This document shows, in pieces, positions 18,580-50,182 of a stretch of DNA of 64,000 bases (within the stretch, counting starts at the first letter, position 1; each line of letters starts with the position of its first letter). The stretch lies in NCBI RefSeq assembly GCF_000026545.1, contig NC_011601.1; one strand, written 5' to 3'. This DNA is from Escherichia coli O127:H6 str. E2348/69. GTDB taxonomy: Bacteria; Pseudomonadota; Gammaproteobacteria; Enterobacterales; Enterobacteriaceae. Under the pieces are notes generated by a model that saw only the letters and a list, made by a program, of their open reading frames with translations, had not been told where the DNA came from and did not search any database. The position numbers and the translations under genes were made by a program.

Positions 18580-19299
18580 TTATAACTTACCCAGTTTAGT
18601 GCGTAACCGTTTAATAGCCTGGCTGTGTAACTGACTGACCCGCGATTCCCCGACCTCCAGCACCGCACCAATCTCTTTGAGATTCAGCTCTTCCTGATAA
18701 TAGAGGGTTAATACCAGTTTTTCGCGCTCCGGCAACGTTTCGATGGCTTCCATCACCCGCTGGCGCAGATTACTGTCCAGCAGTTGTTGTAGCGGGTTTT
18801 CTCGCTGATGATCATCAGTAACCAGTTCGATGCTATCGCCGTGCTCTTCGCGCCACTCATCGTAGGAGAAGAGCTGGCTGTTATTGGTGTCGAGCAACAT
18901 TTGGCGATAATCGGCAATATCGATCCCTAAACGTTCCGCTACCTCAGTTTCCGTGGCGTTGCGGCCAAGTTCCTGCTCCAGTTGCCCTATTGCCTGTGCC
19001 ACTTCACGCGCGTTGCGTCGCACGCTGCGCGGCACCCAGTCACGGCTGCGAAGTTCATCCAGCATAGCGCCACGTATACGCTGCACTGCGTAAGTTGTAA
19101 ATGCCGTTCCTTGTAGGGCGTCATAGCGTTCGACGGCATTAAGTAACCCAATGCCGCCCGCCTGTAGCAGATCGTCAAGTTCCACGCTCGCGGGCAGTCG
19201 AACCTGCAGGCGCAATGCTTCGTGACGCACCAGCGGGACATAACGCTGCCACAGCGAGTGTTTATCCATTACACCTTCAGCGGTATAGAGTGAATTCAC
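18580..19299 (-). CDS. fliA: Flagellar sigma factor FliA (sigma-28, 239 aa)
   Basis: Track ORF MNSLYTAEGVMDKHSLWQRYVPLVRHEALRL... Confidence 0.95.
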   Translation of the reverse strand: MNSLYTAEGVMDKHSLWQRYVPLVRHEALRLQVRLPASVELDDLLQAGGIGLLNAVERYDALQGTAFTTYAVQRIRGAMLDELRSRDWVPRSVRRNAREVAQAIGQLEQELGRNATETEVAERLGIDIADYRQMLLDTNNSQLFSYDEWREEHGDSIELVTDDHQRENPLQQLLDSNLRQRVMEAIETLPEREKLVLTLYYQEELNLKEIGAVLEVGESRVSQLHSQAIKRLRTKLGKL

Positions 19300-19424
19300 G
19301 ATAAACAGCCCTGCGTTATATGAGTTATCGGCATGATTATCCGTTTCTGCAGGGTTTTTAATCGGGCGATTAGTGGGTGAAATGAGGGGTTATTTGGGGG
19401 TTACCGGTAAATTGCGGGCAGAAA

Positions 19425-19619
<195 letters not shown>

Positions 19620-21266
19620 TTAACCCTGCAGCAGAGACAGAACCTGCTGCGGTACCTGGTTGGCTTTTGCCAGTACGGAGTTACCGGCCTGCTGGATAAT
19701 CTGCGCTTTCGACATGTTGGACACTTCGGTCGCATAGTCGGCGTCCTGAATACGGGACTGCGCTTCAGACAGGTTGGTAGTGGTGTTGTTCAGGTTGGTC
19801 ACTGCGGAATCCAGACGGTTTTGCACCGCACCCAGGGAGGAGCGGAATTTGTCGATCTGGCTGATAGCGTCGTCAAGAGCTGCCAGCGGATCTGATGTTG
19901 ATTCTGCTTTGCTAGTCGTATCCGTTGTTAACTTACCATCGGAACCTTTGTAGACCAGTTTCCCGGCAGCCGCATCCTCAGTAGTTGTGATACTTCCATC
20001 AGCTTGTGCATAGTAAGTTGGCGGAGTATCACTGAGAACCCCATTGCTCATATAAGCGGTGTCTGCAGCAGCAGAACCTGTTGTTACGCTATAAGTCTTA
20101 GCACCTACAGTGGCAGTATAAGTGTCATTTTTTACTGCATTTGCAAATGTATTGGCATCAATGGACATTGATGCACCATCAAACGCTGTACCGTCACTGG
20201 TGAATGTTCCTTTATCAGTTTGGATGGTCGCGGCTTTAGCACCAGTAGCAGTAGCAACTTTAGCCAAAGTAGCTTGTGTATCACCACCAGCATTATTTTT
20301 AGTTAAGTTACCGGTAGCATCCATATAAAGTACTGCGCCATCATCAGCAGCAGTTAAATTACCGGATTTATCGATGTTTACATCTTGATCTTTGCCACCA
20401 ATTGTAACTGTAGCTTTAGTCGTATCTCTGGCCTGAGGATTGAGGAAAGCAGCCAGGTTAGCGCTGGAAATATCATCAGAAGCGGCGGAATATGAATTAG
20501 TGTCTTTATTGTAGGTATAGGTTACAGCAGCGGCTGGTGTACCAAAACCAACATCGGCGCTAGTTGTAACTTTATTTCCATCTGCGCCAGCAACAGCATT
20601 TAGAATATCTACGCTACTTGCTACAGCCGATTTGTCAGTATATTGAGTTACACCAACAGTTCCCCCTGGTGCCGCCGCAGCTGTGAATCCAGACATATCT
20701 TTCAGGGTTGCTGCCGTATTAGCCGTTTCCCCTTTGCCGTTCACATTAAACCCATTCAGCCCCAGCGTATCAGAGTCAATTTTCTTCAGATCAATAGTGA
20801 TAGTCTGGCCGTCATTCGCACCAACCTGAATTTTCATCGAACCGTCTTTTGCCAGTACGTTCACGCCGTTGAACTGGGTCTGACCGGATACGCGGTCAAT
20901 TTCGTCGAGACGGGATTTGATTTCGTCCTGAATGGAGTCCAGATCCGAATCAGAGTTAGTCCCGGTAGAAGCCTGAACCGTCAGCTCACGGATACGCTGT
21001 AAGTTGTTGTTGATTTCGGACAGCGCGCCTTCAGTGGTCTGTGCAACAGAAATACCGTCGTTGGCGTTACGTGCAGCCTGAGTCAGGCCTTTAATGTTAG
21101 AAGTAAAACGGTTAGCAATCGCCTGACCCGCGGCGTCATCCTTCGCGCTGTTAATACGCAAGCCAGAAGACAGACGCTCGATAGAACTCGACAGCGCAGA
21201 CTGGTTCTTGTTGATATTATTTTGAGTGATCAGCGAGAGGCTGTTGGTATTAATGACTTGTGCCAT
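19620..21266 (-). CDS. fliC: Flagellin FliC, 548 aa, non-K-12 H-antigen variant
   Basis: Conserved N-terminus [54 protein letters not shown] and C-terminus ...[12 protein letters not shown] flank a long Thr/Ala/Gly-rich central region; K-12 FliC is 498 aa. Confidence 0.95.
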
Positions 21267-21531: not shown

Positions 21532-22938
21532 ATGGCAAGTATTTCATCGCTGGGAGTCGGGTCAGGTCTGGATTTAAGTTCAATCCTTGATAGCCTCACC
21601 GCCGCGCAAAAAGCGACGCTAACCCCTATTTCAAATCAGCAATCGTCGTTTACCGCTAAACTTAGCGCCTACGGTACGCTGAAAAGCGCGCTGACGACTT
21701 TCCAGACCGCCAATACTGCATTGTCTAAAGCCGATCTTTTTTCCGCTACCAGCACCACCAGCAGCACCACCGCGTTCAGTGCCACCACCGCGGGTAATGC
21801 CATCGCCGGGAAATACACCATCAGCGTCACCCATCTGGCGCAGGCGCAAACCCTGACAACGCGCACCACCAGAGACGATACGAAAACGGCGATCGCCACC
21901 AGCGACAGCAAACTCACCATTCAACAAGGCGGCGACAAAGATCCGATTTCCATTGATATCAGCGCGGCTAACTCGTCTTTAAGCGGGATCCGTGATGCCA
22001 TCAACAACGCAAAAGCAGGCGTAAGCGCAAGCATCATTAACGTGGGTAACGGTGAATATCGTCTGTCAGTCACATCAAATGACACCGGCCTTGATAATGC
22101 GATGACACTCTCGGTCAGCGGTGATGATGCGCTACAAAGTTTTATGGGCTATGACGCCAGTGCCAGCAGCAACGGCATGGAGGTCTCGGTCGCCGCCCAG
22201 AATGCACAGCTGACGGTCAATAACGTCGCCATTGAGAACAGCAGCAACACCATCAGCGACGCGCTGGAAAACATCACCCTGAACCTGAACGATGTCACCA
22301 CAGGCAACCAGACGCTGACCATCACTCAGGACACCTCCAAAGCGCAAACGGCGATTAAAGACTGGGTGAATGCCTATAACTCGCTAATAGATACCTTCAG
22401 CAGCCTGACCAAATACACCGCCGTAGATGCGGGAGCTGATAGCCAGAATTCTAGCAATGGCGCACTACTCGGCGACTCCACGCTGCGAACGATTCAGACG
22501 CAGTTGAAATCGATGCTGAGTAATACCGTCAGTTCTTCCAACTATAAAACGCTGGCGCAGATTGGTATCACGACCGATCCCAGCGATGGCAAACTGGAAC
22601 TGGATGCCGACAAACTCACCGCTGCATTGAAAAAAGATGCCAGCGGCGTAGGTGCATTGATTGTTGGCGATGGTAAAAAAACCGGCATCACGACCACCAT
22701 CGGCAGCAACCTGACCAGTTGGCTTTCGACAACGGGCATTATTAAAGCCGCTACCGATGGCGTTAGTAAGACCCTGAATAAGTTAACTAAAGACTACAAC
22801 GCCGCCAGCGATCGCATTGATGCGCAAGTCGCGCGCTATAAAGAACAATTTACCCAACTGGACGTTTTAATGACCTCGTTAAACAGCACCAGCAGCTACT
22901 TAACGCAGCAGTTCGAAAACAACAGTAATTCCAAGTAA
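21532..22938 (+). CDS. fliD: Flagellar filament cap protein FliD (468 aa)
   Basis: Track ORF MASISSLGVGSGLDLSSILDSLTAAQKATL... Confidence 0.95.
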   Translation: MASISSLGVGSGLDLSSILDSLTAAQKATLTPISNQQSSFTAKLSAYGTLKSALTTFQTANTALSKADLFSATSTTSSTTAFSATTAGNAIAGKYTISVTHLAQAQTLTTRTTRDDTKTAIATSDSKLTIQQGGDKDPISIDISAANSSLSGIRDAINNAKAGVSASIINVGNGEYRLSVTSNDTGLDNAMTLSVSGDDALQSFMGYDASASSNGMEVSVAAQNAQLTVNNVAIENSSNTISDALENITLNLNDVTTGNQTLTITQDTSKAQTAIKDWVNAYNSLIDTFSSLTKYTAVDAGADSQNSSNGALLGDSTLRTIQTQLKSMLSNTVSSSNYKTLAQIGITTDPSDGKLELDADKLTAALKKDASGVGALIVGDGKKTGITTTIGSNLTSWLSTTGIIKAATDGVSKTLNKLTKDYNAASDRIDAQVARYKEQFTQLDVLMTSLNSTSSYLTQQFENNSNSK

Positions 22939-22962
22939 TCAATATTCATCGGGAGACAGGTC

Positions 22963-23373
22963 ATGTACGCGGCAAAAGGCACCCAGGCCTATGCACAAAT
23001 TGGCGTCGAAAGCGCCGTAATGAGCGCCAGCCAACAGCAGTTGGTCACCATGCTATTTGATGGAGTGTTGAGCGCACTGGTTAGAGCGCGCCTGTTTATG
23101 CAGGACAACAATCAGCAAGGCAAAGGCGTCTCTTTGTCAAAAGCGATCAACATCATTGAAAACGGACTGCGGGTGAGTCTTGATGAAAAGAGCAAAGACG
23201 AATTAACCCAAAACTTAATTGCTCTTTATAGCTATATGGTCAGGCGTTTGCTGCAAGCCAATTTACGCAACGATGTCTCCGCAGTCGAAGAGGTGGAAGC
23301 ATTAATGCGTAATATTGCCGATGCCTGGAAAGAGTCTTTACTCTCCCCTTCTTTGATTCAGGACCCAGTCTGA
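22963..23373 (+). CDS. fliS: Flagellin chaperone FliS (136 aa)
   Basis: Track [37 protein letters not shown]... Confidence 0.95.
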
Positions 23374-23738
23374 TGAACAATGCACCGCATTTGTATTTCG
23401 CCTGGCAACAACTCGTCGAAAAAAGCCAGCTCATGTTACGCCTGGCAACGGAAGAACAATGGGACGAACTCATCGCCAGCGAAATGGCGTATGTGAATGC
23501 GGTGCAGGAGATCGCACACCTGACTGAAGAGGTTGCCCCGTCCACTACGATGCAGGAGCAGCTCCGCCCGATGCTGCACCTGATTCTCGACAACGAAAGC
23601 AAGGTAAAGCAGTTATTACAGATTCGGATGGATGAACTGGCGAAACTGGTCGGTCAGTCATCGGTGCAAAAATCGGTGTTAAGTGCCTATGGCGATCAGG
23701 GCGGCTTTGTGCTGGCTCCGCAGGATAACCTCTTTTGA
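23373..23738 (+). CDS. fliT: FliD chaperone / anti-FlhDC factor FliT (121 aa)
   Basis: Track [37 protein letters not shown]... Confidence 0.95.
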
Positions 23739-41670: not shown

Positions 41671-41757
41671 AAATCCCGACCCTGAGGGGGTCGGGATGAA
41701 ACTTGCTTAAGCAAGAAGCACTTAAAAAATTCGTTACACCAGGAAATCTGATGTGTT
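41671..41757 (-). ncRNA. dsrA: DsrA small regulatory RNA (87 nt)
   Basis: Reverse complement reads AACACATCAGATTTCCTGGTGTAACGAATTTTTTAAGTGCTTCTTGCTTAAGCAAGTTTCATCCCGACCCCCTCAGGGTCGGGATTT, matching DsrA as recalled, including its terminator hairpin. Confidence 0.9.
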
Positions 41758-41936: not shown

Positions 41937-44460
<2,524 letters not shown>

Positions 44461-49945: not shown

Positions 49946-50092
49946 GACTCAATCATTTTTTGAACAAATAGATAAATTTTGCGCAACGGCGGTGAATACA
50001 GGAAAACTCGATTTGAACGATTTTATTTATCTTTGATTTCGGCTTTATTAATTCATTCAATCAATATATTGGTACTGATTACAATTATACCT

Positions 50093-50182
50093 TTTTATTT
50101 TTCTGTGTCATCATGCCTCCGTTATTAGCCTTTTATCGTCTTGTTTATATTTTTTTTGGCCGGCATGATGCCGGCTTTTTTT
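50093..50182 (+). ncRNA. rseX: Candidate RseX sRNA (boundaries approximate)
   Basis: Intrinsic terminator ggccggcatgatgccggc + T7 at 50158-50182 in the yedR-yedS spacer; upstream CCUCC-containing stretch (catcatgcctcc). RseX is reported between yedR and yedS; placement from memory. Confidence 0.35.

Follow-up and report, generated by a model that had tools for sequence, protein, structure and literature searches.

The closest described system is the flagellar filament of enteropathogenic Escherichia coli (EPEC) O127:H6, which was solved by cryo-electron microscopy (cryo-EM) by Kreutzberger et al. (2022; PMC8931119). In that structure, the D0/D1 domains of the flagellin form the canonical core, and the outer domains D2, D3, and D4 form an outer-domain sheath built of tetramers, with a seam at which helical symmetry is broken. 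The same authors found that the outer domains of the H6, H7, and Achromobacter flagellins are alike (although the H7 outer domains form dimers without a seam), whereas those of K-12 resemble the outer domains of Salmonella FliC and form no sheath (PMC8931119). H6 flagella are adhesive: they attach the bacteria to HeLa cells and also bind to mucins, collagen, and laminin (reviewed in PMC4009794), and the FliC protein of strain E2348/69 activates TLR5 and NF-κB and can leak out through the LEE type III system (PMC2647546); activation of IL-8 has been reported alongside TLR5 for H6 flagellin (PMC4009794, PMC2647546). In the accepted picture, H types are exchanged by recombination that ends in the conserved ends of fliC (Hu and Reeves 2020; PMC7018530). 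The fliC gene of E2348/69, its protein, its serology, its adhesion and TLR5 roles, and the structure of its filament are all published and already known.

Here, we analyzed a window of 64,000 bases (the whole stretch of DNA under study) and computed the identity, domain layout, mosaic boundaries, and regulatory motifs of the fliC gene that it contains, as well as the membership and frequency of the corresponding allele class. We consider it close to certain (a probability of about 0.98) that this gene is fliC of EPEC O127:H6 strain E2348/69 and that it encodes the H6 flagellin. By direct string comparison, the window is the same, base for base, as positions 2039214-2103213 of NZ_LT827011.1. 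The 1,647 nt of fliC are 100.0% identical in DNA sequence to three E2348/69 assemblies, two of which carry the deposited name Escherichia coli O127:H6, and the 24 kb around the gene are 100% identical to E2348/69 assemblies only, the next best genome standing at 97.8%. Exact look-up and RefSeq annotation identify the product as FLIC_ECO27 (Swiss-Prot), CAS09589.1, and WP_000079695.1. The chains in PDB entries 7SQJ, 8CVI, and 8CYE are identical to all 548 residues, and 7SN7 comprises residues 3-548, such that cryo-EM filament structures exist for precisely this sequence (PMC8931119). When set against the described E2348/69 flagellin, then, the gene is the same one throughout its nucleotides, residues, and context, and we found no difference; nor did we find any evidence at this locus of E2348/69 that contradicts its reading as fliC encoding H6 flagellin.

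The original prediction of a 548-residue flagellin at 19620-21266, which was made without a strand, agrees with both the open reading frame and the Pfam domains of its product; the peptide quoted with that prediction corresponds to residues 177-212 of the translated frame. The N- and C-terminal helical regions of bacterial flagellin (FliC/FljB family) are both present, as Flagellin_N (PF00669; residues 5-140, E value of 1.4e-46, 158.5 bits against a cutoff of 26.6) and Flagellin_C (PF00700; residues 462-546, E value of 5.4e-32, 110.4 bits against a cutoff of 23). Between them, residues 338-452 match the enterobacterial FliC domain PF12445. The protein contains no Cys, Trp, or His. The features of the locus are collected in the table.

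Table. Features of the fliC locus, with positions numbered from the first base of the window
Feature	Position	Strand	Basis and remarks
fliC, H6 flagellin, 548 aa	19620..21266	minus	Intact ORF with ATG start; stop codon included
Conserved N-terminal D0/D1 coding part, residues 1-175	20742..21266	minus	Identity to K-12; Flagellin_N
Hypervariable central region, residues 176-455; H6 antigen determinant, outer domains D2-D4	19902..20741	minus	Divergence from K-12; PMC8931119
Conserved C-terminal D1/D0 coding part, residues 456-548, plus stop codon	19620..19901	minus	Identity to K-12; Flagellin_C
Codons N320-N325 (NLTKNN), D4 dimer-site motif	20292..20309	minus	Alignment with Sakai H7; site from PMC8931119
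(GCTACT)2, encoding Ala-Thr-Ala-Thr, residues 338-341; variable in copy number	20244..20255	minus	Protein and DNA alignments
Sigma-28 (FliA) class 3 promoter-like element, TAAAGGTT-N11-GACGATAA	21343..21369	minus	Motif match upstream of fliC
fliC 3'UTR, 195 nt, from the stop codon to the end of the T run	19422..19616	minus	Colinear with K-12 sRNA FliX (b4827); REP-like palindromes
fliC intrinsic terminator, 7-bp all-G:C stem (CCCCGCC AAC GGCGGGG) plus T7 run	19422..19445	minus	Conserved in K-12
fliA, sigma-28 factor that transcribes fliC	18580..19299	minus	ORF, Pfam, annotation; downstream of fliC on the same strand
fliD-fliS-fliT: filament cap, flagellin export chaperone, and regulator	21532..23738	plus	Divergent from fliC

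The comparison with K-12 MG1655, whose H48 FliC (b1923; PDB 8CXM) has 498 residues and a middle that is 50 residues shorter, divides the gene into three parts. The two ends had been described as canonical D0/D1 segments, and indeed 164 of the first 175 residues (93.7%; BLASTP) and 94.6% of residues 456-548 are identical to K-12 FliC; against the H18 and H7 alleles, the identity of residues 1-175 rises to 97-99%. The middle, by contrast, can hardly be aligned with K-12 at all. Residues 176-455 are 29.5% identical to their K-12 counterparts in a pairwise alignment, with 91 gap columns, and 24.0% identical in an alignment of five sequences, with gap columns ranging from 91 to 103 across alignments. 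A search for high central identity to K-12 fliC therefore returned only 24-30%, and the original prediction that the middle is unlike K-12 H48 FliC in both length and sequence holds, as does its description of this region as rich in Thr, Ala, Gly, and Asp (16.4, 18.6, 10.0, and 9.6%, respectively). By similarity of the central region, fliC of E2348/69 lies outside the K-12 H48 allele class, and no K-12-type genome appeared among the megablast matches to the H6 central region.

The transitions between these parts are abrupt. In 60-nt bins, DNA identity to K-12 is mostly 92-100% outside the central part of fliC, declines to 75-87% as the N-terminal boundary is approached, and drops to the chance level (28-58%) nowhere but in the interval from about 20752 to 19852. 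The intergenic regions that flank fliC on both sides are 98-99% identical to K-12, as are the neighboring genes. The center has a GC content of 0.449, lower than that of either end (0.491 and 0.553). As judged from these alignments, fliC is a sharp mosaic, in which a shared frame holds a replaced center. The H6 center also was found with two flank haplotypes, which differ at 46 nt and have 3'UTRs of unequal length; one H6 haplotype carries these 46 differences relative to E2348/69, with about 8 amino acid substitutions as read off the alignment. Sharp divergence boundaries within a K-12-like frame, together with the two flank haplotypes, fit the replacement of H types by recombination events that terminate in the conserved parts of the gene.

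The original prediction held that the middle is the H-antigen determinant and thereby types the strain, but left the H type open. That type is H6. The assignment draws on serotype-labeled genomes, PDB entries, and the literature, the serotype labels in RefSeq being the depositors' own. Apart from its complete identity to E2348/69, full-length fliC is 99.3-99.8% identical to records labeled O150:H6, O99:H6, and O2:H6. The central 840 nt, which are 100% identical to E2348/69 (O127:H6) and 99.6% identical to the O99:H6 record, occur at full length and in single copy in 233 of 5,426 complete E. coli genomes, at 96.6-100% identity (megablast); all of the serotype-labeled records among the matches listed for the central region are H6. 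With a more sensitive blastn search, no genome was found between 95% and 65.5% central-region identity; the few matches to the region at 90-95% are probably long-repeat variants. The next allele class, at about 65% DNA identity in the same search, includes an O15:H18 record. On this DNA similarity, H6 is best described as a discrete and moderately common allele class, present in roughly 4% of complete E. coli genomes.

It might be argued that the allele represents a related H type (H18, for instance, or a further type in its sequence group) and that the H6 label has been misassigned. The H18-class flagellin (O15:H18 ST69; WP_000079726.1; 554 aa) is the nearest distinct class; its ends are 93-97% identical to those of H6, its center is colinear with the H6 center but has no Ala-Thr tract at the equivalent position, and the two middles share 58.5% of their residues, versus 26.0% and 24.0% for H7 and H48 in the five-sequence alignment. 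Moreover, related H types, e.g., H1 and H12, can cross-react serologically (PMC4753304). However, the gene is identical to that of the reference O127:H6 strain, H6-labeled records from four O groups match it at 99.3-100%, and H18 reaches only about 65% at the DNA level, with no intermediates. In addition, both the PDB entries and the published papers refer to this exact protein as EPEC H6. We therefore regard a misassigned label as extremely improbable and retain the reading of the gene as H6 fliC.

The surroundings of the gene are those expected of it. The gene order, fliZ-fliA, fliC, and fliD-fliS-fliT, is the same in K-12 and in O157:H7 Sakai (ORFs, Pfam, and annotation), and the position between fliA and the divergent fliDST genes is the usual one for fliC in E. 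coli. The established sigma-28 consensus is TAAAGTTT-N11-GCCGATAA; the upstream element TAAAGGTT-N11-GACGATAA matches it and is a putative sigma-28 promoter on that basis, and the stretch from 21369 to 21343 is identical in K-12. At the other end of the gene, the terminator stem occupies 19445..19429 and is followed by the T7 run. The whole 320-nt spacer between fliC and fliA shows 98% column identity to K-12 in an alignment. No Rfam family was found in the 3'UTR at the gathering threshold, and so the correspondence with FliX rests on alignment to the K-12 annotation. We also observed that the fliC-fliA spacer exists in two forms among H6 genomes: the 320-nt form (19300-19619 here, shared with K-12 and O15:H18) and a 163-nt form in ST405-like genomes, in which only the terminator is left and some 155 nt of REP-like palindromes, the main body of K-12 FliX, are absent.

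The steps by which the E. coli flagellar regulon yields a filament are established knowledge, and we infer that they apply at this locus as well. FliA, encoded next door, would transcribe fliC as a class 3 gene from the sigma-28 promoter. The flagellin presumably would then be bound by its chaperone, FliS, leave the cell through the flagellar type III apparatus, and polymerize under the FliD cap. Residues 1-175 and 456-548 are expected to fold together as the D0/D1 coiled-coil core, giving a tube of 11 protofilaments and the surface recognized by TLR5. Residues from about 176 to 455 would fold as the outer domains D2-D4, pairing into the tetrameric sheath with its seam as seen in the published cryo-EM work, and the surface of this D2-D4 sheath would constitute the H6 serological determinant.

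A second possibility is that fliC is not the expressed H antigen, either because it is silent or because a second flagellin locus (of the flk, fll, or flm type) is expressed in its place. Some H types of E. coli are encoded outside fliC (PMC7018530 refers to flk phase variation), and gene decay does occur in E2348/69, as evidenced by the pseudogenes yedD, dgcQ, and araH in the window. Against a silent gene, the open reading frame, promoter, and terminator of fliC are all intact, as are fliA, fliD, fliS, and fliT. Against a second locus, a megablast search with fliC as the query located one flagellin place in each E2348/69 record and no second one, and DNA similarity revealed no other flagellin gene in this genome. 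Filaments purified from E2348/69 yielded the 7SN7 structure with the same sequence, which in effect shows expression, and anti-H6 FliC antibodies detect the product, with a fliC deletion mutant as the negative control (PMC2647546). We thus consider it hardly credible that fliC is replaced or silent as the H antigen, and we take it as the expressed H6 gene in what follows.

Other H6 alleles (those of the ST405-like genomes 222, NT1W25, and AR_0372, of GN05476, and of NC101, O2:H6) share the domains and locus of E2348/69, with centers that are 95-99.6% identical. At a greater distance, the flagellins of O157:H7 (585 aa; PDB 7SN4), Achromobacter (7SQD), and Azotobacter (9N59) share with H6 the D4 dimer motif GNLTxNNAG and the sheath-forming architecture of three outer domains, D2-D4 (PMC8931119). 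In our alignment, N320 and N324 of H6 correspond to N319 and N323 of H7, which lie in GNLTTNNAGS, and the motif of two asparagines four residues apart at the D4 dimer site is therefore present in H6. The overall similarity of the H6 and H7 middles is nonetheless low (about 26% identity, with 105 gap columns). When the central 280 residues were searched against the PDB by sequence, only H6 itself and one weak match, 9N59 (E value of 0.0011), were found, which indicates that sequence alone misses the kinship of the H6 and H7 outer domains. The evidence for it comes instead from the shared motif, from the published comparison (PMC8931119), and from the ranking in a fold search. For the latter, an AlphaFold model of FliC built from a nine-sequence alignment was used; the model is of low quality, with a mean pLDDT of 58.5, a TM score of 0.34, and a root mean square deviation of 34 Å to 7SN7. 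Even this poor model retrieved 7SN7 and then 7SN4, 9N59, and 7SQD from the PDB, ahead of the Salmonella FliC types. Given a global TM score of only 0.34, we base our statements on the published structure rather than the model.

Several other features of the window were noted in passing. The first, at 1-1050, is a junction between the end of an IS4-like ISEc13 transposase gene and a truncated araH lacking its C terminus (RefSeq annotation); this arabinose ABC transporter permease gene appears to be disrupted by ISEc13 in E2348/69. Two further genes are annotated as frameshifted pseudogenes in this strain: yedD (25337-25749), for a lipoprotein, and dgcQ/yedQ (42767-44460), for a diguanylate cyclase that controls the synthesis of cellulose. 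Between yedL and fliE, at 28978-29118, there is a short remnant of an integrase gene; the corresponding site in O157:H7 Sakai is occupied by espR3 and espR4, two effector-like genes, which points to a position within the fli region where insertions vary. Toward the end of the window, a tRNA-Asn gene (60086-60161) is directly followed by a degraded invasin-domain pseudogene (60466-61360) with a frameshift, an internal stop, and both ends missing, and then by a gene for a family 9 glycosyltransferase (61521-62573); the interval 60086-62573 looks like an islet remnant at the tRNA-Asn site. Rfam searches identified the small RNAs DsrA (41671-41757, minus strand, 102.5 bits) and RseX (50092-50182, plus strand, 89.4 bits), as well as tRNA genes at 9329-9627, 59008-59094, and 60086-60158. 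With the H6 fliC gene named, the window can be placed in the prototype EPEC strain, at its fli region, and this helps in annotating the remainder.

The H6 alleles vary among themselves in an in-frame (GCTACT)n, or (Ala-Thr)n, repeat that follows residue 337. E2348/69 has two copies, while alignments of four other H6 genomes gave 3, 4, 5, and 10, and an allele of about 8 copies also was seen, its copy number being inferred from hit length. Among 60 of the 233 H6 genomes, sampled systematically and typed by the length of the hit, two copies were the most frequent (28 genomes), followed by three (14), four (10), and five (5), with single genomes at 8 and 10; one sampled allele was frameshifted. 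The alleles with 3, 4, and 5 copies have no other differences over 1,635 nt of coding sequence, and the two-copy allele of E2348/69 and the 10-copy allele of GN05476 are otherwise just 3 nt apart. That identical or nearly identical alleles should differ in this way implies that copy number changes faster than point substitutions accrue, and the pattern suggests replication slippage as a likely source of the variation. The tract lies 13 residues past the D4 dimer-site motif. The structural model gives a weak hint that it may fall at a helix-to-loop transition, where a short helix (residues 334-339) comes to its end; pLDDT there is 70-84.

We found no description of the (Ala-Thr)n repeat of H6 fliC in the part of the literature that our search covered, and we view the polymorphism as mildly new; it sits near an outer-domain dimer interface in a filament of known structure. 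One speculative, and in our estimation rather unlikely, possibility is that the tract is a slippage-prone coding microsatellite that quickly alters the length of an element on the sheath surface in a contingency-like manner. If this were true, the length of the Ala-Thr tract could tune the seam and packing of the sheath, the motility of cells in viscous media, or their escape from antibodies or phage.
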